Assembly (NCBI GenBank): GCA_036269115.1
Contig: DATAST010000262.1
Span: forward strand, 3,386-67,385
Direction of reading: 5' to 3'
DNA from: Verrucomicrobiia bacterium
GTDB lineage: Bacteria; Verrucomicrobiota; Verrucomicrobiia; Limisphaerales; UBA11358
Length of the DNA stretch: 64,000 nt
Shown here: positions 1-60,208 of the stretch, in pieces
Layout of the letters: each line of letters starts with the position of its first letter
Position numbering within the stretch: position 1 is the first letter of the stretch
Notes under the pieces: model-generated
Databases searched by the model: none
What the model was told of the DNA's origin: nothing
What the model saw: only the letters and a program-made list of their open reading frames with translations
Translations under genes and position numbers: made by a program

Positions 1-79
1 CGATCAGAACATTGAACGCCATGCCGTTCCTCCCTTCTTCCTTATGCTTTTGGGCGATCATGAATTCGTCTGTGAACAT
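1..79 (-). CDS. hypothetical cassette ORF, 5' part only (MFTDEFMIAQKHKEEGRNGMAFNVLI...), continues beyond the left edge
   Basis: The minus-strand ATG at 79 lies 11 nt after the attC core GTTAGGC (97-91). The frame stays open to the window edge. The fragment is too short to assign a family. Confidence 0.45.
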   Translation of the reverse strand, partial: MFTDEFMIAQKHKEEGRNGMAFNVLI

Positions 80-90
80 TGAGTAATGTG

Positions 91-195
91 GCCTAACGCG
101 CCAAAGCTGAGCCACGGCGCGAAAAATCACAAGTATGAATTTGTAACAAATGAAAAACGAAGGAGCAGCCCATTGGCTCCAGTGATGTGTTAGAC
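91..195 (-). mobile_element. integron attC recombination site (105 nt)
   Basis: Minus strand reads GTCTAAC(195-189)-ACATCA-CTGGAGCC(182-175)...GGCTCAG(113-107)-CTTTGGCGC-GTTAGGC(97-91). The ends fit RYYYAAC/GTTRRRY. The inner boxes pair except for one extra G on the left arm. It shares an identical 21-nt block and a near-identical 27-nt block with the site at 780-936. Confidence 0.8.
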
Positions 196-207
196 AACAA
201 TGTCGAA

Positions 208-762
208 TCATTCAAATGCACTCTTGAACTCATCAATAATCCTTTGGGAGTTTAGCTCCTTGACGGAAGCGAATATGATGTCGCTACCAGAATCTGAAAA
301 CCAAATCGCCAAATATGGGTCGGCGTTCGGGAAATCAAAAACTCCTTCACTTTTCAACTCTCGGAGCGCCCTGGTAAACGTGCTCCGATAGGCTCTAATA
401 TGCGCAATTTCAAACTCATCCATCACGAAATCATCGGCATCTTTTGAATGCAGACCGGAAAACTGCTGGTTGAGGACAGCGATGAGTGGGGTGACGGCGC
501 TGAGCGCCTTATGATCCCAGTGAATCCACTCATCTACACAATACCGATAATAGCTTCCGTCCTTTTTAATGTCTTGAGTTCGATTCCATGCCGCTACCAA
601 ATCTTTGATTTCATAAGTCTCGCCCGGCAAGAGTGCAAAGCCATAAATATCTGAATGCTGCGCTCTCAACTGCGCGACATATTGCCTGATGGCTTGCTTG
701 GTGCCATCAAGCAATTCGTGCCGCTCTGATGCCAGCCATTCTTTGAGTGTTTCTTTATTCAT
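208..762 (-). CDS. DUF4303-like small protein (184 aa), integron cassette cargo
   Basis: The ATG at 762 lies 17 nt after the attC core. The longer track ORF (to 858) reads through the attC and is not credible. The motifs IYGFALLPGE...YYRYCVDEWIHW resemble the DUF4303 family. GC looks lower than in neighbouring genes. Confidence 0.7.
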   Translation of the reverse strand: MNKETLKEWLASERHELLDGTKQAIRQYVAQLRAQHSDIYGFALLPGETYEIKDLVAAWNRTQDIKKDGSYYRYCVDEWIHWDHKALSAVTPLIAVLNQQFSGLHSKDADDFVMDEFEIAHIRAYRSTFTRALRELKSEGVFDFPNADPYLAIWFSDSGSDIIFASVKELNSQRIIDEFKSAFE

Positions 763-779
763 AGCATGGTGAACTTTTG

Positions 780-936
780 GCCTAACGATCCAAAGCTGAG
801 CCACGCCGATCCGTCTTCGCTCGGCTACGACGGGACAAGCCGGCGAGTGGCTCCGCAAACTCGATAATCGTTGTATAATTCAAACCGTCCATAAATTCAA
901 GGGGCAGTCGGCGTTGGCTCCAGTGATGTGTTAGGC
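780..936 (-). mobile_element. integron attC recombination site (157 nt)
   Basis: Minus strand reads GCCTAAC(936-930)-ACATCA-CTGGAGCC(923-916)...GGCTCAG(802-796)-CTTTGGATC-GTTAGGC(786-780). The outer boxes are perfect reverse complements. The helix extends (AACGCCGAC vs TCGGCGT) with a second bulged base on the same arm. Confidence 0.8.
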
Positions 937-1080
937 CACATGGCTCGTATCTCCATGCCTCTCGATTCTGCGATGCTGCTCCAGCCAAGGCATCGCCTCC
1001 GACATAGGCAAAACCAATCCAATGTCCAGCAACTGAAAATGCTCGCGAGCTATCTGCACGAACTCCTGCACATCCACCAT
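931..1080 (-). CDS. hypothetical 49-aa cassette ORF (MVDVQEFVQIAREHFQLLDIGLVLPMSEAMPWLEQHRRIERHGDTSHVA)
   Basis: It has an ATG at 1080. Its TAA stop (933-931) is formed inside the attC box GCCTAAC. It is below the ORF-track length cutoff and was found by manual translation. Confidence 0.4.
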   Translation of the reverse strand: MVDVQEFVQIAREHFQLLDIGLVLPMSEAMPWLEQHRRIERHGDTSHVA

Positions 1081-1146
1081 GGCCGCGGGTCAGATTCGCG
1101 CTGTCGCGCGGCTTCGCAGTTAGCGGCTTGATTTTTGGGGCTTTTA

Positions 1147-1186
1147 CCCAGGGCTGCGCTCACGGATTCGCTTGGCCCTGGGCTAC
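1147..1186. repeat. GC-rich palindrome followed by CTAC (possible REP-like element)
   Basis: CCCAGGGC (1147-1154) pairs with GCCCTGGG (1175-1182) across a 20-nt loop and is followed directly by CTAC. Confidence 0.4.
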
Positions 1187-1422
1187 AAATAGGTCACCCC
1201 GATGGGGTTCAGACAGCTTCGCCGACAGATAAGATCTTTCCTTCGCCTTTCCTGGAACCTAATGCAATATCTGGGTTTTAACCTTTCTACGTTTTAACCC
1301 TTTTCAACTTTTCAACAGTCACGCCTCCGCCCGTAATTCGGCCCTTCGAACCCGCAGACAAAACTTCCCCTTTATTCGCCGCTTTTTTGGGGTATTCTGA
1401 TTCCGTGACGTTAACCGAGCAA

Positions 1423-2685
1423 ATGACGCAATTGGCTAAACAGGCCAAAGCTGCGTCGCGCGAACTGGCTACGCTCTCAACTGAGGCGAAGAACCAGTGC
1501 CTGGCCGCCATGGCCGATGCCCTGGAACAGAGCGGTGACGCCATCAAAGAAGCCAACGCGCTGGATATGGAAACCGCGGCCAACCACGGTTTACCGGCGG
1601 CCATGTTGGATCGTCTTAAACTGGATGATAAACGGATTTCAGCCATGGCAAAGGGCCTGCGCGAAGTCGCCGCGCTTCCCGATCCTGTGGGCAAAATCCT
1701 GGACGAGCGTGTCCGGCCCAATGGCTTAAAACTCCAAAAGATTTCCACACCCATTGGAGTCGTCGTGATCATTTACGAGTCGCGTCCCAACGTGACGGCC
1801 GATGCCGCGAGCCTGTGCTTTAAATCCGGCAATGCGACCATTTTACGCGGCGGCAAGGAAGCCATGCATTCCAATCAGCTCATCGCGCGGGTGATGATTG
1901 ACGCCGGGAAAAAAGTGCTGGCGCATTTTCCCGAACACGCCATCCAGGTCGTGCCTGTGCCCGATCGTGAGGCCATTCCGCTCCTGCTCGGCCTCACGCA
2001 ATATATCGACCTGTGCATGCCGCGCGGTGGCGAGGGACTCATTCGGGCTGTAACTGAATGCTCCAAGGTCCCCGTCATCAAACATTATAAAGGCGTCTGC
2101 CACGTTTTTGTGGATGCGGACGCCGACCTGGCCATGGCCGAGAACATCGCCATGAATGCCAAAGTCCAGCGTCCCGCGGTTTGCAACGCCATGGAAACCC
2201 TGCTCGTGGATAAAAAGATCGCCGCGGCCTTTCTTCCCGGGATCGGCAAAAAATTGGCCGAGAAGAAAGTGGAACTGCGATGTGACTCCGCCGCTTTGGC
2301 GCAGCTTTCAGCCCTAAACGGGCAACTGCGCCTCAAACCCGCCGCAGAACAGGACTGGTTCACCGAATATAACGATTATATTTTAAACGTGCGCGTCGTG
2401 GACGACGTCGCCCAGGCGATCGATCATGTGAATCATTACGGATCGGCGCATTCGGACAGCATCGTCACCCGTAACGAAGACCACGCCCGAAAATTTCTGA
2501 GCGAAGTGGACTCTGCCACCGTTTATTGGAACGCGAGCACGCGATTTACCGACGGCGGGGAATTCGGCATGGGCGCGGAAATTGGCATCAGCACCGATAA
2601 AATCGGCGCTCGCGGACCCATGGGCCTGGCAGAACTGACGAGCTATAAGTGGGTCGGCATAGGGTCCGGGCAAATCCGCACTTAA
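1423..2685 (+). CDS. proA: gamma-glutamyl phosphate reductase
   Basis: Full-length similarity to ProA is recognisable (aldehyde dehydrogenase fold, ...IYESRPNVT..., ...HGSAHSD...). The ATG at 1423 is preferred over the TTG at 1387. Confidence 0.9.
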   Translation: MTQLAKQAKAASRELATLSTEAKNQCLAAMADALEQSGDAIKEANALDMETAANHGLPAAMLDRLKLDDKRISAMAKGLREVAALPDPVGKILDERVRPNGLKLQKISTPIGVVVIIYESRPNVTADAASLCFKSGNATILRGGKEAMHSNQLIARVMIDAGKKVLAHFPEHAIQVVPVPDREAIPLLLGLTQYIDLCMPRGGEGLIRAVTECSKVPVIKHYKGVCHVFVDADADLAMAENIAMNAKVQRPAVCNAMETLLVDKKIAAAFLPGIGKKLAEKKVELRCDSAALAQLSALNGQLRLKPAAEQDWFTEYNDYILNVRVVDDVAQAIDHVNHYGSAHSDSIVTRNEDHARKFLSEVDSATVYWNASTRFTDGGEFGMGAEIGISTDKIGARGPMGLAELTSYKWVGIGSGQIRT

Positions 2686-2753: not shown

Positions 2754-3311
2754 ATGCAAACGGCGGCAAAGAGCGATTGGACAAGCGTTGAAGATTATCT
2801 CGCCGCTGAAGAGAGCAGCGAGGTGCGCCATGAGTATCTTGGCGGCATCGTCTATGCCATGGCTGGTGAAACGCGCGCACACGGTATCATTGTGCTCAAT
2901 CTCGCGTTTGCCATTCGCGAACATCTGCGAGGCAAACCTTGCGAGGTGCATGCCAAGGACATCCGCGTGAACTTCGACATGCGCAATGACGAATACTTTT
3001 ACTATCCGGATATTGTGATTACCTGTGACAAGCGCGATAACCATCCGCGCTGGATTCGATTTCCGAAACTCATTGTCGAGGTTCTTTCCGAAAGTACCGA
3101 GCGCATTGACCGGCGGGAAAAGTTTTTCGCTTATACCAGCATGCCGTCGCTGGAAGAGTATGCGCTCGTGGGGCAAAATCAAAAGGAAGTGACCGTTTTC
3201 CGCCGTAGCAACCGCTGGAAGGCCGAGCGATTTTCAGGCTCCGGTGCAAAGGTTGCATTCGCTTCCGTTAAATTCCAGCTCCCGCTGGCTGCGATCTACG
3301 AAGGCATTTAA
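2754..3311 (+). CDS. Uma2-family (DUF820) restriction-endonuclease-like protein
   Basis: The size (185 aa) and the motifs HEYLGG..YAMAG, PDIVI and EVLSEST are typical of Uma2. Confidence 0.75.
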   Translation: MQTAAKSDWTSVEDYLAAEESSEVRHEYLGGIVYAMAGETRAHGIIVLNLAFAIREHLRGKPCEVHAKDIRVNFDMRNDEYFYYPDIVITCDKRDNHPRWIRFPKLIVEVLSESTERIDRREKFFAYTSMPSLEEYALVGQNQKEVTVFRRSNRWKAERFSGSGAKVAFASVKFQLPLAAIYEGI

Positions 3312-3317
3312 AACTCG

Positions 3318-4640
3318 ATGTCGCCCCAGGAAACAGCGACAGCCGTCCGCGACTCGCTCCCGTCTGGCGGACTTTTTGCCGGATTGAAATGGCGAACTGC
3401 CGTATCGCCGCTTGCTCTCGACCCGGAGCTTGCCAACGAACTCGAATCTCTCGGACGGGTGCTGCTCCAGTTCTATCGCGCGGTTAATCTTCTGTATCGC
3501 AAAAGCGTCGAAGGGAAGCAACCAGAATGGGTGGCTCGCTGGCTGGATCTGGGCAAGCCTCGGGAACTGATCGCCCTGCAACGCGCGCCGGCTTTCAAGA
3601 ATGACGTCCCGCGTGTTATCCGCCCGGACATTTTGCTGACGGAGAACGGTTTTTGCATCAGCGAATTGGACTCGGTCCCTGGTGGAATTGGCCTGACAGC
3701 ATGGCTGAACCAGGCCTATTCCAAATTTGATGGCCGCCCGACGATCATCGGCGGCAACGATGGAATGTTTAAGGGGTTCGACGGCATCTTCGGTGACGCT
3801 AAAAATGTCCAGGTCGTCGTCTCGGACGAAGCCGCCACCTATCGCCCGGAGATGGAATGGATGGCGGCCAGGGATTCCAGGTTCCAGGTCAGGGATTCGA
3901 AGTTTGAAGATTTTACCGAGGGCGATGCGGTTTATCGCTTCTTTGAGTTATTCGACATTGCAAACGTAGCGAATTCGAAAAAAATCTTTTCGCTGGCTGC
4001 CGAAGGTAAAATCCGGCTGACGCCACCGCCCAAAACCATTTTTGAGGAGAAGATGCTTTTTGCGCTGTTATGGAACTGGAACCTGCGCGATTTCTGGAGG
4101 CAGGAACTTGGCGAAAGCTTTTTCTCGCGGTTAAAACGCGCGGTTCCTTATACCTGGCTGCTGGATCCCGCGCCATTGCCGCAGCATGCGGCGTTTCCGG
4201 GGCTGAACCTGACTGACTGGCACCAGCTGAAAACCCTGTCGCAAAAGGAGCGCGACCTGATTTTGAAGATTTCCGGTTACTCGGAAAAGGCATGGGGCGC
4301 CCGCGGAGTATTTCTGGGCAGCGACTTGTCTCATGCCGATTGGGCCGCTGCGGTGGACCAGGCGCTCGCCGGCTTCGAAAAATCTCCATTTGTCCTGCAG
4401 AAATACGAACGCCCGAAACTGGTCGAGACAAGCTGGTTTGATTTCCAGAAAGCCGAAGTTGTCTCCATGCGAGGACGCGCGCGCCTGTGTCCTTACTATT
4501 TCGTGACCGGCGAAGGGGAAAACGCCCGACCGCACATCGGCGGCATCCTGGCCACCATCGTTCCCGCAGACAAAAAGATCATCCACGGAATGACCGACGC
4601 TGTTTTAGCGCCGTGCGCTGTCAAGCAACGAGATGGATGA
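3318..4640 (+). CDS. conserved hypothetical protein, possibly ATP-grasp-like (circularly permuted type)
   Basis: This 440-aa ORF has coding-like composition and starts 7 nt after the Uma2 stop. The segment RPDILLTENGFCISELDSVPGGIG only weakly recalls ATP-grasp/GspS-like folds. Confidence 0.35.
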   Translation: MSPQETATAVRDSLPSGGLFAGLKWRTAVSPLALDPELANELESLGRVLLQFYRAVNLLYRKSVEGKQPEWVARWLDLGKPRELIALQRAPAFKNDVPRVIRPDILLTENGFCISELDSVPGGIGLTAWLNQAYSKFDGRPTIIGGNDGMFKGFDGIFGDAKNVQVVVSDEAATYRPEMEWMAARDSRFQVRDSKFEDFTEGDAVYRFFELFDIANVANSKKIFSLAAEGKIRLTPPPKTIFEEKMLFALLWNWNLRDFWRQELGESFFSRLKRAVPYTWLLDPAPLPQHAAFPGLNLTDWHQLKTLSQKERDLILKISGYSEKAWGARGVFLGSDLSHADWAAAVDQALAGFEKSPFVLQKYERPKLVETSWFDFQKAEVVSMRGRARLCPYYFVTGEGENARPHIGGILATIVPADKKIIHGMTDAVLAPCAVKQRDG

Positions 4641-12499: not shown

Positions 12500-13068
12500 A
12501 AAACGATAAACACCGATGCCCGTGGCCAACGGATGAAATGTATATCCGCTACCACGACGAGGAATGGGGCGTACCCGTCCATGACGACCGGTTATTGTTT
12601 GAGTTTCTCATCCTGGAAGGAGCGCAGGCCGGCCTGAGCTGGCGGACGGTTTTGAACAAGCGCGAAAACTATCGGAAAGCATTCGATCAGTTCGACGCTG
12701 AGAAAATCGCCCGGTACAATCAGGCGAAAAGAGAAAAGCTGATGAACGACGCGGGAATCATCCGAAATCGGTTGAAAATTGAATCTGCGATTCAGAATGC
12801 CAGGGCGTTCCTAAAAGTGAGGGATGAATTCGGCAGTTTCGACGCGTACCAATGGCAATTTGTGGAGGGCAAGCCCATCATCAACCATCACAAAAGCATG
12901 AAAGACGTCCCGGCGCATACGAAAATTTCCGACGCCATGAGCAAGGACCTGCTTAAGCGCGGATTTAAATTTGTGGGTTCGACGATTTGTTACGCGCACA
13001 TGCAGGCGGTGGGGATGGTGAATGACCATTTAGTAAGCTGCTTCAGGCATCGGGAACTATTGAAATAA
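12496..13068 (+). CDS. tag: DNA-3-methyladenine glycosylase I
   Basis: It has CPW...[31 protein letters not shown]. It overlaps the trpF stop by 4 nt. Confidence 0.88.
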
Positions 13069-25024: not shown

Positions 25025-26154
25025 ATTCTCTTTTGGTTATCGTTTTTGTTTATATTGTCGTTTCATAGGTAAGACGAACCGATTAGGGCGGAAAGGACAA
25101 ATATTTCGGTTTTCTTCCAGTGTGTTTATCTATCAGATGGAAGGGGCATTGTCGTCTCCGCCATCGGACGCAGGGCCTATACGGATATTGGATCGAGGCT
25201 ACCTTGCGCCGCTGAGCCAAGTCGCGTGCAAGCACCGAATCTTGATCTCTATCCGTCCGTTCCGATGCGTTTTGGACGCGGAAAAAGGACAGATGGGATG
25301 AACGGGAAGGGATGGGAGCGAAAATGCCTTGTATTTGCGATTTTGGCAGGAGGCTTTGGGAGGGGAACTGTCCCCCCACCAAGAGGGATTGTTTGGAACA
25401 ATTGAATTGTTCTGTGTCTGCGTAACGTATTATGGCCATGATTCTTGTGACGGAATTGAATTGTCCATTGCATTTTGCCCGGAGACAGTTCGGTGCGGGC
25501 CATTGAAGCGTTGAAACGGATTGGTCGCGCGAAGGCCGCGAAGAATGCGAAGGGTCTGATCCAAAAGCGCGCAGAGAACATAAGAACTCTATTTTTCCGA
25601 CATCCTGTTCCAAGCCGCGTGCGGGCAAAAGCACGAAACACGTGAAAGATACGGAGTACGAAGATGATGCCTCTTAGCCCGCGTCGAGGACGATGACGAT
25701 GACGAAGAGGATGACCAAACTTCGCCAAGGCTTCCACCGTTGCCGTTGCGGCTTCCTCGTTCGCCAAGCCTACGGCGGACGGGATGGCGGACAGGACGAT
25801 GGGCAGGCGATGGTTCCCCCTGGCCCTGTGAAACAGGCGATGGGCTCGGTTAGGTACACTGCCGGTGATAGTATCCTTCACAGTGGCATTTTCTCACGCG
25901 TTAGCGACGTGTTCAACCGGTTTATTTGCCACCTTTTGACACTTTTTAGAACCTTTTGGAACCCTCCTACGCGCAAGGCTACGGTGGGCTTGCCCGCCTT
26001 CGAGAATCGGGGAAAAACGGAAGCGCAGGCGCACAAAATGCTTGCAAAATCTTGGAGCGTGTGTAGAATCGTCTGCAACAGCAGCTGTCGTGGGTAATGT
26101 AATAGATCCGGGCGGAAAATATTAGATAATAGCCTCCGAACACGATTTGTCTGT

Positions 26155-51284: not shown

Positions 51285-51487
51285 GCCGCTCGTTTCCATG
51301 GAATCTGCGAAATCCCCAATAAAAGCGATGTTTTTGGCTTCGTTTCCTTTTGCATTCCCTATGCCCAAAAAATGTGTAACGCACCTCTTACCGCAGCAGC
51401 GCCACGCCTGTCCGCCGTAGCTGCCGTTGAGCGAAGGCGGAAGGGTTCCATGTTGGGTGTTCGATTGACCGGTGGGGTTGCCACCCA
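51285..51487 (-). repeat. direct repeat, copy 1 (downstream flank of the SMI1 gene)
   Basis: Block 1 (51285-51383) is about 95% identical to 52181-52278. Block 2 (51431-51487) matches 52397-52453. The middle section is variable. Confidence 0.8.
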
Positions 51488-51490
51488 GTT

Positions 51491-52168
51491 CTAATGCTGA
51501 TCATTTGCCTCCCACGGCAATGGGATCCCTTTGCATTCAACAATTTTCGGATCTATCGCGACGACCTTTTCCTTATCAAACGGCCAATAAGACAGTTGTT
51601 TTCGCTGATAAAAGCGTTCGTTTTCCAAGAAGAAAAACAGGAACCTCCAAACTCCCGAAGCAACCACATAAGTCGGAGCATCTTCGGCCTGATCTAAGAA
51701 AAAAACGGGATGCGTACCTGTCGATGGAATTAAAAGTGAGGTCGCAAGGATGAAAACATCCCCGCAGCCATCGTCTGCAATTGGCATCCATCCTTTTTTT
51801 GACCATTCCGGGCGTTCTCTCAAGTACCAATCCATTGAGCAATCATCCTTACTTTTTGAAAATAACGGATAAAAAGTACTCGGACCCAAACTAATTCCGT
51901 TATAGCACTTTAGCAATTCACGGATCTCACAAGGAAGTTTCAATTCGTGGATCCTTTCGAATTTGATGATTTGCTCATCTGTTGCAGGTGCTGCGGCAAC
52001 GCGCTCCCCTTTAAAGTCGGAAAGATTGTTAACTAGTTCAAGAACTTTATCCTCAATAGTAATCATATATCTGTCACCGCTCCGCCACCCATTCCCGTAT
52101 TTATATTCACAAAGTTTTATCTCTTCAATCTGGCGAACAGCGGTGGCCGCAGTAGGCCAATGTCCCAT
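51491..52168 (-). CDS. SMI1/KNR4 (SUKH-1) family protein, immunity-protein-like
   Basis: It has the typical SUKH pattern (IIKFERIHELKLPCEIRELLKCYNG ... IADDGCGDVFIL ... VFFLDQ). The ATG at 52168 is preferred. The track start at 52264 is a TTG inside the repeat. Confidence 0.75.
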   Translation of the reverse strand: MGHWPTAATAVRQIEEIKLCEYKYGNGWRSGDRYMITIEDKVLELVNNLSDFKGERVAAAPATDEQIIKFERIHELKLPCEIRELLKCYNGISLGPSTFYPLFSKSKDDCSMDWYLRERPEWSKKGWMPIADDGCGDVFILATSLLIPSTGTHPVFFLDQAEDAPTYVVASGVWRFLFFFLENERFYQRKQLSYWPFDKEKVVAIDPKIVECKGIPLPWEANDQH

Positions 52169-52180
52169 CCCAGGTGCTGG

Positions 52181-52453
52181 GCCGCTCGTTTCCATGAAAT
52201 CTGCGAAATCTCCAGTAAAAGCGATGTTTTTGGCTTCGTTTCCTTTTGCATTTCCTATGCTCAAAAAATGTGTACGCAGGGAAGGGGGGAATCATTCTCA
52301 TTCTCATCGTCATCGTCATCGTCACTTGGCGCCGTTGGGCTCACTCTCACTCTCGTCGCCCTGTCTCGCCTGCTCACGCTCTCAGTGGAAGCCTCGGCGA
52401 AGGCGGAAGCGTTCGATTTTGGGTGTTCGATTGGCCGGTGGGGTTGCCACCCA
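52181..52453 (-). repeat. direct repeat, copy 2 (upstream flank of the SMI1 gene)
   Basis: See copy 1. The middle section here carries the (TCATCG)n / CTCA-rich filler. Confidence 0.8.
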
Positions 52454-52587
52454 TTTACACCCCCGGAACGCTTAAAACACCAATGACCACAGAGGTTTTC
52501 CGCCAAAAAACTCGCGCCGTTTACTGTTTACTTTCCTATATACAAAAAATGTGTGGTGGCTAGCCCGGCCTCGAACGTTTTGCCGCT

Positions 52588-57101: not shown

Positions 57102-58184
57102 CTATTTTGCAGCCGCCGCATTCTCCGGCCGAAGAATCACTTCCCGGCCTTTCCAACTGGGCCGGCCGATGTGGCTGAAACCACCCAACCGATAGCGCCA
57201 TGAAACTCCATAAAAAGGATTGCCCGTGGGCCAAAATGAAATCATGTCCACGCCAATTTCCTTTGCCATTTCGATGGCTCGTTGGATTGTTTTGGGAGAA
57301 TCATTCCAGTTAAACAGCAGGTATTTCCATTCCAAAATAGGCATCTTCAAGCCGCGCGCGTCACGATAGGCCGCCATTTGCTTCATCGCGTCGTAAGCTT
57401 TTTCAAAACTGCCGCGCTTCATGTATTTGCCGCACATATCGTCGCTGATGCCATGGACGGAAAATTGGATGTCGCTCAAATTCAGCGCGGCTTCGCGCTT
57501 GGCCTCCGTGTTCAATAAAACGCCGTTGGTCGATATACGAATGTAAGCATTCGGGTTTTTTGAGCGGAGCAGCGGCAGTTCCTGGCAGACGCCTGGCGAT
57601 AGAAACGGTTCGCCCAGGTTCAAATAAAAGATTCGCTGCATTCCCAGCCGCGCGGCAATATCGGCCATTTGCCCCAGTTCATTCAGGGGCATTGTTTTCC
57701 GGGTCCGGATGTCCGCTGCCCCCTCACGCGCGCAGCCGATGCAATCCACGTTGCAGATGACGGTGTTCTCCAAAAGCATCCCGCGATAGGGCAAACGCGG
57801 TTTTGCCGGCGTCTCCCCGCGTTTCAGCTGGCGCAATTCACAGCGCGAGCAAGTTGGAATCGGAATTTTTCCCCGGGCCAGTTCGTCACGAAATTTCTGC
57901 GCCGTCTCGCCAAAAAAGATTTCCTCAAAGGTATTCTTTCTCAAGTCGCCAATGTGCCCGCTGCCGTCGTAGTCCTGGCAATTGCATGAAACGGTCAAAT
58001 CCGAATTGATGGTCATGTTATACTCCGATTCTCCCTGGAGAACCGTGCAAACATATTTTCGGCCCGTGATTTTCGCGCGGATTTCGAGCCAGCGCGACAT
58101 CGTCCACCGAAGGACCTTGCTCACGCGCCAGTTCAGGCGTGTTTTGGGGTCGCGGATGGATCGTGATGTAGGCGAAGCCGCCAT
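57102..58184 (-). CDS. radical SAM protein with an N-terminal SPASM/twitch-like Cys-rich module
   Basis: The CNVDCIGC (CxxxCxxC) motif lies at about residue 130 of the 360-aa version. It is preceded by SCNC...GHIGDL..NTFEEIF......FR......C..C. The start is uncertain (GTG 58289, ATG 58184 or ATG 58100). Confidence 0.7.
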   Translation of the reverse strand: MAASPTSRSIRDPKTRLNWRVSKVLRWTMSRWLEIRAKITGRKYVCTVLQGESEYNMTINSDLTVSCNCQDYDGSGHIGDLRKNTFEEIFFGETAQKFRDELARGKIPIPTCSRCELRQLKRGETPAKPRLPYRGMLLENTVICNVDCIGCAREGAADIRTRKTMPLNELGQMADIAARLGMQRIFYLNLGEPFLSPGVCQELPLLRSKNPNAYIRISTNGVLLNTEAKREAALNLSDIQFSVHGISDDMCGKYMKRGSFEKAYDAMKQMAAYRDARGLKMPILEWKYLLFNWNDSPKTIQRAIEMAKEIGVDMISFWPTGNPFYGVSWRYRLGGFSHIGRPSWKGREVILRPENAAAAK

Positions 58185-58261
58185 GGAAACAGAATACCAA
58201 AGACATTGGGAGATTCCAAGCACCAACCTGCCAATTGCGGAATCTGAGGTTCGCTTTCCGC

Positions 58262-60208
58262 TTACTTTTTCATTTCTGCCACGTACCACTCCTGCGGCCC
58301 TTCTGCGACCTTCACGGTCTCATTTGTCTCGGCGACAATTTTCGCGCCCGTCCGTTGCAACCAATCCTCCAGCGTAATGCCGCGCAATTTCAAATTCAGC
58401 CCGCCAACCACGGCGTAATCAACCTTTTCCTTTCGAAAAAGGTCCGGAGGATCGCTCAACAAAAAATGTTCCACCCGCCGCGAACCGAACGGCAGCCATA
58501 ATGATATATCACAATCGTCCTCCGCGCCGATGAAACCGACCACTTGAATGCCCCCGGGCAACAGAGTTCGCACATCGGCCAGTGGATCGGAGCGCCTGGC
58601 ATAGACGGCGTACACATGTTGCGCGCGCACAACCAGATGGCTGGACGGGTGCCGCGCAGCCAGCCAGCCCAAAACTCTTTGCGCGGGCCACAGAGGCCGG
58701 TCAGGCACCAATACCAGGACCATCAACGCCAGCACCATGACGCCGCCCGCCAGCGCGCGCCACCAGGCGCGGCCAACGAGATCTGACTGTCCACGGCCGA
58801 TCAGCAAAAGAGGAGCCAGCAAGGGATAATACGGGGCAATCAGGCGATCGGGCGTCACCATCCCCGTTTTCATACAGTACGCCAGCAACGCCGCCCACGG
58901 CGCGAGCATGACAAGTGTGGTAAATACACCGCGCCGCGGTGTGCGCGTTTGCGCTGAATTGGCAGTCCGGTCACCATGCGATTTGCGCCTGGCAGCAAAA
59001 CCGCCAATGACTGAAATTACCAGCAAGAGGCTCACACCAAATCCAATTCCGCTCCAGTCCTCGGTGGGCAATTCACCCAACCATAAAAAACCATCCTCAA
59101 AGTTCCGGACCATCGGCGCGCTCAGCCAGTGTGGCAGCGCCAACAACGCATTTTGGTTCCACCAACCTGCAAAGGGAAAGAACGGCGGTGTGAAATTGTC
59201 CAAAAGAAGCAGAAACGCATTGCCCCAAATACCGACAAAAGGATTTTTCATGTTCATCCCTTCCTGTTCGATAGACAATCCCGACCAATCATGGCCTGGA
59301 ATGTAATACCAGTTCAGGATGGCGCTGGGCAAAAATGACACTACCGCCGCGATCACCAACACCGCCCCGGTGCCAGCGACATTTCGTTTGAACACAGGAA
59401 GGCAAGGCACCATGGCAATCGCCCAGGGCAACAGCAAAGGCAGGTTGCTCGCTTTAGCGCCGGTCAGCAATGCCGCCGCCAAAATTGAGAGCCACAAATC
59501 TCCAATCGCTGTGGGGGACGCCGCCGTGCCGTCTTTGCCACTGGCCGCGCCGCGCAAGGCAAAATAGATGGCTGCCAGCGCGTAAACCGTTGGAAATGTA
59601 TCATTGGCATTGCCGCCGGCCTGCAGCAGAAACGTATAGCCGCTCGGCAGGATCCACATCCAATGCCACGCAACTCGTGCGCGCACTCCCAACTGAATAA
59701 AAACACTGTAAATCAGTCCGGGTAAAAGCAGAAATGGCAGAAAATTGAGCAGGAACAAACCGCGCGTGGAATTGGTGAACAGCAATAACGGCGCCGACAG
59801 CCATTCTATGCCGCAAGCGCGATCGTTCATCCGATAATCGGTCGTGTGCACCCATATCCAGTGCCCGTGCGAAAGCCACTGCAATACCCGCCCGGCACGA
59901 TACGTCAATCCGGTATAATTAGCGGGCGGGTAAATTGCCCCGCCGATAAGCACCAAAACCGCCAGCACGAGAAAGCAAAATGGCAAAGGACGGCGAAAAC
60001 GGCGAAACGCCTTTTGCACAGCCAAAGAGAGCCTTTCGACCGAAAACCCAAAACTCTCTCGTTTTAGAAAAATAAAAACCGCGAATAGCGCAAACGCGGC
60101 CGTGTAACCAATTCGGTTTAGCTCACCGAACACCGAAAGGAGCCAACCCGCAACCGTGGCGAAAACCGAAATCCAAATCCAAAGCTGAAGAATTGGCCGA
60201 TAAGACAT
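58262..60208 (-). CDS. large polytopic membrane protein (GT-C/O-antigen-polymerase-like) with a C-terminal soluble domain
   Basis: It is 648 aa with at least 12 TM segments and a roughly 130-aa hydrophilic tail. No confident family is recognised. Confidence 0.5.
   Translation of the reverse strand: MSYRPILQLWIWISVFATVAGWLLSVFGELNRIGYTAAFALFAVFIFLKRESFGFSVERLSLAVQKAFRRFRRPLPFCFLVLAVLVLIGGAIYPPANYTGLTYRAGRVLQWLSHGHWIWVHTTDYRMNDRACGIEWLSAPLLLFTNSTRGLFLLNFLPFLLLPGLIYSVFIQLGVRARVAWHWMWILPSGYTFLLQAGGNANDTFPTVYALAAIYFALRGAASGKDGTAASPTAIGDLWLSILAAALLTGAKASNLPLLLPWAIAMVPCLPVFKRNVAGTGAVLVIAAVVSFLPSAILNWYYIPGHDWSGLSIEQEGMNMKNPFVGIWGNAFLLLLDNFTPPFFPFAGWWNQNALLALPHWLSAPMVRNFEDGFLWLGELPTEDWSGIGFGVSLLLVISVIGGFAARRKSHGDRTANSAQTRTPRRGVFTTLVMLAPWAALLAYCMKTGMVTPDRLIAPYYPLLAPLLLIGRGQSDLVGRAWWRALAGGVMVLALMVLVLVPDRPLWPAQRVLGWLAARHPSSHLVVRAQHVYAVYARRSDPLADVRTLLPGGIQVVGFIGAEDDCDISLWLPFGSRRVEHFLLSDPPDLFRKEKVDYAVVGGLNLKLRGITLEDWLQRTGAKIVAETNETVKVAEGPQEWYVAEMKK

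Follow-up and report, generated by a model that had tools for sequence, protein, structure and literature searches.

The 64,000-nt window analysed here (positions 3,386 to 67,385 of contig DATAST010000262.1, assembly GCA_036269115.1, Verrucomicrobiia) opens at its left edge with part of an array of integron-type gene cassettes. The array, of whose four attC sites the window contains two, is very probably a cluster of attC sites lacking an integron integrase (CALIN). It belongs to the chromosome of an uncultured soil member of the Verrucomicrobiae and lies within a variable stretch of 3.9 kb flanked by proA and a flavin reductase gene. By the definition of Cury et al. 2016 (PMC4889954), a CALIN has two or more attC sites, spaced by at most 4 kb, and no integron integrase in the neighbourhood. 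The four sites of this array lie within 2.1 kb, each after an open reading frame (ORF) on the same strand, and the contig carries no integron integrase in their vicinity. Since neither the window nor the contig encodes an integrase, the locus is a CALIN rather than an integron. A complete integron would have an adjacent intI, an attI site and a Pc promoter; here the upstream neighbour is proA, and the leader in front of the array holds no GTTRRRY core. A sedentary chromosomal integron does not fit either, with four sites, no integrase and three relatives whose corresponding locus is devoid of attC. An earlier note on this DNA had described an integron-type cassette array with attC sites: covariation, anatomy and integrase-linked relatives bear out the attC array, while the integron in the full sense is lost for want of an integrase.

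Both attC sites in the window have their top strand on the minus strand. Site 1 (780..936, 157 nt) reads on that strand from R'' GCCTAAC (936-930) and L'' CTGGAGCC (923-916) through to L' GGCTCAG (802-796) and R' GTTAGGC (786-780), with a spacer of 6 nt (ACATCA, 929-924) on one arm and of 9 nt (795-787) on the other; its crossover point would fall between 786 and 785. Site 2 (91..195, 105 nt) is built in the same way, from R'' GTCTAAC (195-189), L'' CTGGAGCC (182-175), L' GGCTCAG (113-107) and R' GTTAGGC (97-91). The R boxes pair at all seven positions in site 1 (GCCTAAC/GTTAGGC) and at six of seven in site 2 (GTCTAAC/GTTAGGC), and the L box CTGGAGCC pairs with GGCTCAG except for one additional base on the L'' arm. 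The spacer arms, 6 nt between R'' and L'' and 9 nt between R' and L' (8-9 nt in most members of the family to which these sites belong), are unpaired and asymmetric. The co-directional minus-strand ORFs split by two elements at 936-780 and 195-91, the RYYYAAC and GTTRRRY boxes and the inner boxes listed in the earlier note are all present in the sequence. So is the conserved 21-nt end, which occurs as CTAACACATCACTGGAGCCAA in exactly two copies in the 64 kb, against an expectation of 0.00 derived from 100 shuffles.

On the bottom strand, that is, the plus strand of the window, the unpaired bases are a C at 921 (position 16) and a T at 914 (position 23) in site 1, and a C at 180 (position 16) and a T at 173 (position 23) in site 2. 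Each site has its two bulges on the plus-strand 3' arm, with 6 bp between them. This is the arrangement described for attC sites, in which the bottom strand carries the RYYYAAC box on its 5' arm and the unpaired bases on the opposite arm, the first of them within L'' at position 16 and usually a G, the last a conserved T at position 23 or 24, 6 bp apart (Nivina et al. 2016; Bouvier et al. 2009). The spacers of known sites are usually 5-6 nt long and the terminal structure is variable (Nivina et al. 2016; Bouvier et al. 2009). The first bulge had been described in the earlier note as an extra G that determines orientation; its position is correct, but the G stands on the top strand, which does not recombine, and the bottom strand has a C.

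The two sites can also be found without recourse to any family sequence. A strict rule, which demands complementary RYYYAAC and GTTRRRY boxes plus inner boxes of 8 and 7 nt that pair perfectly bar one bulge, recovers both of them, with 0.01 matches expected per shuffled window. When applied to about nine genuine attC sites of class 1, it recognised attC_aadA2 alone; the class 1 loci used numbered eight and yielded about eight usable sites, most of which were of the aadA type. The rule is therefore specific and conservative rather than sensitive. A covariance model trained solely on sites from other metagenomes, and thus independent of the source contig (model R2), gives 79.5 bits to site 1 and 61.1 bits to site 2 on the plus (bottom) strand, as compared with 16.6 bits for the opposite strand of site 1 and 11.3 bits for the best unrelated position in the window. 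Model R1 scores the two sites at 79.7 and 66.2 bits; E-values from such home-made models are rough. Scans of the 64 kb with R1 and R2 returned no further family site besides these two.

One more sequence in the window satisfies the strict rule, at 57183-57287 on the minus strand (ATCCAAC...GTTGGGT, with CATCGAAA pairing with TTTCATG around one bulge). It sits within the 3' part of a radical SAM/SPASM gene (57102-58289, minus strand), is undetected by the family models and has neither a second bulge nor a stem. It is probably a chance occurrence in coding sequence.

The array does not end with the window. The source contig is a 68,893-nt Joint Genome Institute (JGI) metagenome contig, Ga0376688_0000265 of JGI 3300036818, of which the window is a reversed part, and it reaches 3,371 nt past the left edge. 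That the array would continue there, and that further RYYYAAC...GTTRRRY elements might be met to the left, had been foreseen, and this flank indeed bears two more attC sites of the same kind, which brings the array to four sites of 99-157 nt. Sites 1, 3 and 4 retain both unpaired bases together with intact R and L boxes. The array is identical in three samples, namely 3300036818, 3300036786 and 3300035704.

Sites of the same family are widespread and occur at over 120 public loci, mostly in Verrucomicrobiia MAGs and soil metagenomes. Exact copies of the conserved-arm 21-mer are present in 40 stretches from species-representative genomes and 86 from metagenomes. The genomes that carry it are mostly metagenome-assembled genomes (MAGs) named Verrucomicrobiia, Limisphaerales or Verrucomicrobia, with a few labelled Pirellulales, Sulfotelmatobacter, Angelobacter or other taxa, bearing in mind that the taxon labels of MAGs can be wrong. 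Seventy-five distinct sites were aligned, and a covariance model built from this alignment detects 213 sites in 80 metagenome loci outside the training set, where the covariation is the same. Over the R box, the L box and a 5-bp stem past the L box, 95-97 % of the cells are paired (95 % in the 75-site alignment), the R box by itself reaching 96-97 % across the family. Four stem pairs show compensatory swaps between GC and CG, one of them with 35 CG against 33 GC. The covariation score amounts to 0.158-0.175, as opposed to 0.06 in shuffles (none of 500 reached the observed value) and at most 0.07 in slid registers, in which pairing falls to 13-44 % overall and to 23-44 % in the 75-site alignment.

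The unpaired T is invariant in the two sets of family sites (75/75 and 136/136, 211 in all), and the unpaired C is found in 71/75 and 132/136 (203 of the 211). In the first site of the related locus L118 the L box is a different one, CTGCAGGC with GCCTGAG, and it assigns the bulge unambiguously to position 16. Family sites are 90 to 157 nt long. In the related arrays, the longest ORF between successive sites lies on the attC top strand in 86 of 103 intervals, the median cassette measures 504 nt and the ORF starts at a median of 12 nt past R'. As to which strand folds, the balance of G-T and A-C mismatches revealed no preference in either of two sets of family sites (27 vs 39 and 38 vs 27).

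Within the family, an attC class of 108 nt (GCCTAACACATCACTGGAGCCAACGCCGGTTACGCC...) is nearly identical across differently labelled loci (L006-L008, L011, L013, L019, L023, L024, L031 and L037), among them MAGs labelled Verrucomicrobiia, Pirellulales (a 772 kb contig) and Candidatus Angelobacter. Its spread reflects either recent exchange of cassettes between phyla or mislabelled bins.

Several related arrays are accompanied by an integrase. In L118, an integrase gene is divergent from a 10-site array of the same attC family. Its product is a full-length homologue of IntI1 (53 % identity) that keeps the IntI-specific insertion and scores 435.7 bits on the NCBIfam integron-integrase model TIGR02249, for which the cut-off is 265. 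A GTTAGGC core is found at the attI position of this locus, 14 nt ahead of the ATG of the first cassette. The same divergent layout is seen in L143 and L142, where integrases 66-68 % identical to that of L118 go with 7 and 2 family sites, respectively; the contigs are chromosomal and measure 132 and 219 kb. For one related integrase, NCBI gives a Verrucomicrobiia MAG as the source. Integrase remnants lie beside family arrays in L008, L024, L004 and L037, and the same match is present in L063 and L087; decay of the integrase seems to be frequent in this lineage. The remnants are short N- or C-terminal integrase pieces, such as ...RRLLDQVRDRVRLKHLALSTERSYVAWIRRYILFH... and ...QIYTHVMQKPGVGARSPLD.

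These loci also bear on the nature of the repeats. A dispersed palindromic element, such as a repetitive extragenic palindrome (REP), a miniature inverted-repeat transposable element (MITE) or a terminator-like sequence, could merely resemble attC, and the strong conservation of the family site ends across many genomes, as in REP families, together with the single exact 21-mer copy in many 8-kb stretches, is what such an element would lead one to expect. Dispersed palindromes would not, however, form co-oriented arrays in which each copy follows an ORF on the same strand, nor would these arrays start beside a genuine integron integrase, as they do at three loci, one of them with the GTTAGGC core at the attI position. 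The unpaired bases stand exactly where attC has them, there is no terminator-like run of T and no other copy exists in the 64 kb window. It is thus very unlikely that the elements are anything but attC sites.

That arrays of this family do have an adjoining integrase in L118, L143 and L142 raises the question whether the four sites are the distal part of a complete integron, with integrase and attI just outside the region examined. Such an integrase would need to be upstream of cassette 1, that is, above position 1080 of the window, and that place is occupied by proA and conserved syntenic genes. When IntI1 (a sequence 100 % identical to the real protein) and the L118 integrase were used as tblastn probes, neither the 64 kb window nor the 3.4 kb of contig past its left edge yielded an integrase (E-values of 2.2 and 1.8 at best), and Pfam scans of long ORFs gave no Phage_integrase domain or tyrosine recombinase. 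There is no intI within 64 kb on one side of the array or within 2.2 kb on the other, where the contig ends. Little chance, therefore, is left for an integron truncated by the limits of the sequence.

The surroundings of the array indicate where the cassettes stop and the conserved chromosome begins. The proA gene (1423..2685, plus strand; Pfam Aldedh) is a conserved chromosomal gene, divergent from the array, which marks the proximal boundary and lies outside the element; its product matches, at 100 % identity, a protein of a MAG named 'Verrucomicrobiae bacterium', which carries the gene on a 137.8 kb contig. In three relatives whose ProA is 90-93 % identical, no attC was found at the syntenic locus. 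The flavin reductase gene directly adjoins proA in the relative with 93 % identity (a 3.3 Mb contig), an acyltransferase gene stands between the two in the second, and a PemK toxin-antitoxin pair lies upstream of proA in the third. Similarity to the relatives ends at about position 1350 of the window; on the other side it returns 2.56 kb past the left edge, with the flavin reductase gene. It follows from these breakpoints in synteny and from the attC-free relatives that the array lies in a lineage-specific segment of 3.9 kb, at a variable position. From the BLAST searches with the leader and the synteny breakpoints, no clean insertion junction can be defined; the array may have arisen by secondary-site insertion, as a rearranged fragment or through loss of the integrase.

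Several observations weigh against the CALIN reading. The first unpaired bottom-strand base of both window sites is a C and not the usual G, and the R'-L' spacer has 9 nt in place of the usual 5-6. Rfam, at permissive and at gathering thresholds, gave nothing for the window elements, a result to be read with the fact that Rfam is without an attC family. The proximal cassette has no recognisable 5' boundary. At the other end, site 4 is followed by an ORF of 215 aa and membrane type, which is placed like a cassette and has no attC behind it; a putative truncated attC in this position went undetected by the covariance models. Lastly, site 2 folds poorly. With respect to the C, changing G16 to C in a VCR site (Vibrio cholerae repeat) lowered recombination by only 2.7-fold (Bouvier et al. 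2009), and C16 is for this reason regarded as a variant and not as a disqualification.

Folding of the bottom strand had been suggested as a check in the earlier note, and the result differs between the two sites. In an unconstrained DNA fold of the plus strand of site 1, the R box, the L box and the stem all form, while the attC hairpin of site 2 was recovered on neither strand. Under DNA energy parameters, formation of the R and L boxes has a predicted probability of 0.20 for site 1, 0.21 for site 3 and 0.15 for site 4, the family median being 0.20. For site 2 it is about 7e-6 to 4e-5, the second lowest among the 75 family sites, and the recombinogenic fold lies 7-8 kcal/mol above the minimum-energy fold. 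The poor predicted fold is attributable to degradation of the stem beyond the L box, and as a result cassettes 2 and 3 may no longer separate; on this prediction they may now behave as one unit.

The state of site 2 leads to the possibility that the array is a fossil, i.e., that the sites, although genuine attC in origin, have ceased to be recombined, which would leave the segment as a few fixed accessory genes. This explanation would account for the absence of an integrase from the contig, for a fold probability of about 1e-5 in site 2 compared with the family median of 0.2, for an array that is unchanged in three samples, and for proximal and distal ends without clean boundaries; the integrase remnants beside related arrays show, moreover, that decay is common in the lineage. 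On the other hand, sites 1, 3 and 4 fold near the family median and keep their unpaired bases as well as their R and L boxes, and intact integrases of the family exist in the same kind of environment. We consider a fossil array possible, if on balance improbable.

If the CALIN can still be mobilised, established integron biology suggests how. Each site is an imperfect palindrome whose bottom strand, once single-stranded, can fold into a hairpin with a 7-bp R box, an unpaired spacer (9 and 6 nt), the L box, the unpaired C16 and T23 and a variable stem-loop. By analogy with known systems, an integron integrase would recognise the unpaired bases, bind the folded site and cleave in R' between A and C of AAC. 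A cassette would then be an ORF-plus-attC circle, excised by attC x attC recombination or inserted at an attI site. No integrase is encoded in cis, and the array could therefore be moved only by one supplied in trans, which might be encoded at another place in the genome or arrive with an element of the same attC family. Without it, the cassettes would merely be stored genes. Recombination activity of the window sites is thus a prediction, drawn from their fold and from what has been established for integrons at large.

In most respects, the locus resembles the CALINs already reported. These are common, contain five sites on average and in 95 % of cases have no recognisable intI pseudogene nearby; integrons in Verrucomicrobia have been reported as well (Cury et al. 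2016, PMC4889954). The present array has four sites, cassettes of unknown function that are not resistance genes, and likewise no recognisable intI pseudogene in its vicinity. It differs in nothing essential, except that close relatives free of the array are available here for comparison.

The sites themselves share with class 1 attC (attC_aadA2, attC_aadA7) the R'' box GTCTAAC or GCCTAAC, the R' box GTTAGnn, the single unpaired L-box base on the R''-L'' arm, unpaired positions 16 and 23 with 6 bp between them (as in the real attC_aadA2), a variable stem-loop and their location after a promoterless ORF. They depart from class 1 sites in having C rather than G as the first unpaired base, spacers of 6 and 9 nt as opposed to 5 and 6, lengths of 99-157 nt as against 60-72 nt for many class 1 sites, and arms whose sequence is conserved across the family. 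In this last feature they resemble the VCRs, which are also chromosomal, have nearly identical arms, exceed 100 nt and accompany cassettes of unknown function. Unlike the sedentary VCR arrays, however, this one has four sites and no integrase and is absent in relatives with 90-93 % identical proA, which means that it is not a conserved platform of the species.

Sites of the attC type are known to cluster by environment, and taxon-specific types have been described by means of 11 taxon models, Verrucomicrobia not being among the taxa covered (Ghaly et al. 2021, PMC8352920). Like those types, the family described here is conserved in sequence and structure, can be captured by a dedicated covariance model and is common to soil bacteria, including MAGs labelled as other phyla. 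The near-identity of its arms across soil genomes agrees with clustering by environment. A non-exhaustive literature search brought up no published description of this attC type.

A more far-reaching proposal, which we regard as rather doubtful, is that the sites represent an undescribed, sequence-conserved soil attC type, carried mainly by Verrucomicrobiia and also by MAGs labelled Pirellulales and Acidobacteriota, in which C16 selects the strand and the 9-nt spacer arm possibly shifts recognition by the integrase. The orphan array would then be the outcome of an off-target insertion at a secondary site near proA, in a variable hotspot, and not a decayed integron.

The contents of the cassettes give few hints. 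The cassette 1 ORF (931..1080, minus strand) encodes 49 aa, has its TAA stop within R'' of site 1 and matches no family. Gene calling on the source contig includes it; it may not be a real gene. The cassette 2 ORF (208..762, minus strand) encodes 184 aa with a DUF4303 domain (Pfam PF14136, E = 1.1e-12), begins 17 nt past R' of site 1 and stops 12 nt short of R'' of site 2, the cassette as a whole spanning 785-97 (689 nt). The cassette 3 ORF (1..79, minus strand) runs over the left edge of the window; its ATG lies 11 nt after R' GTTAGGC of site 2, its full length is 219 aa and it ends in attC site 3 on the source contig. Both distances from GTTAGGC to the next ATG, 17 and 11 nt, are as had been observed at the outset. 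The GC content of cassettes 2 and 3 is 0.45-0.50 and that of the flanks 0.55-0.60, and such a low value would fit a foreign origin of the cassettes. DUF4303, a domain of unknown function, is the sole family match among the cassette proteins, which gave no NCBIfam or PADLOC match and no homologues in about 490 kb of related arrays. With one DUF4303 protein and the others without a family match, the cassette proteins offer no functional lead.

The leader (1081..1349) extends from the cassette 1 ORF to the point, at about 1350, where similarity to the relatives resumes. It contains no attI-like GTTRRRY core and no integrase remnant, and BLAST of the leader against the related loci, including those with integrase remnants, produced no match, so that an attI remnant is not demonstrable. 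A promoter scan remained at chance level, and there is no Pc promoter platform. A direct repeat, GGTTAAAAC, is present in the leader at 1275-1299, in two copies 16 nt apart; attI1 contains direct repeats.

Some further features lie in the flank past the left edge and are numbered here by the coordinates of locus L001. About 1.87 kb beyond the edge, a called gene of 80 aa on the strand opposite to the array has its TAA stop within GGCTAACAC (12632-12640). Some family R'' boxes begin with these same 9 nt, and cassettes 1 and 3 have their stops in the equivalent place. The covariance models detected no full site at this spot, which may be the stump of an inverted cassette and would then suggest that the distal end of the array has been rearranged. 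Between the 80-aa gene and an ORF of 71 aa, about eight GTAACA/TGTAACA repeats are packed into 120 nt (12800-12920); inside the window this motif occurs at chance frequency (4 found vs 2.9 expected). A dispersed repeat of about 90 nt is found at 13063-13153 of L001 and in the window at 52232-52323, 52518-52559, 51336-51377 and 25689-25714, the longest pair being 81 % identical. It seems to comprise a leader together with the first part of a small hydrophobic ORF (MLIVIVILAFAF...), and copies surround an SMI1/SUKH gene (window 51491-52264).

Small accessory genes differ among close relatives throughout the region around proA and argS. Next to proA, a gene for a Uma2-family endonuclease (window 2754-3311) is also present in the relative L132 and absent in two others, and a PIN toxin gene with a partner of 73 aa stands beside argS (L001 1540-2177).

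The array does not change the understanding of integrons, since both CALINs and integrons in Verrucomicrobia had already been described. What it provides is a documented cassette array without an integrase in an uncultured member of the Verrucomicrobiae, together with array-free relatives that permit direct comparison of the locus. It also draws attention to one attC type, with C16 and T23, that is widespread in soil metagenomes and goes together with intact integrases sharing about 53 % identity with IntI1. This type could be of use for building taxon-specific attC models and for tracing the flow of cassettes in soil.

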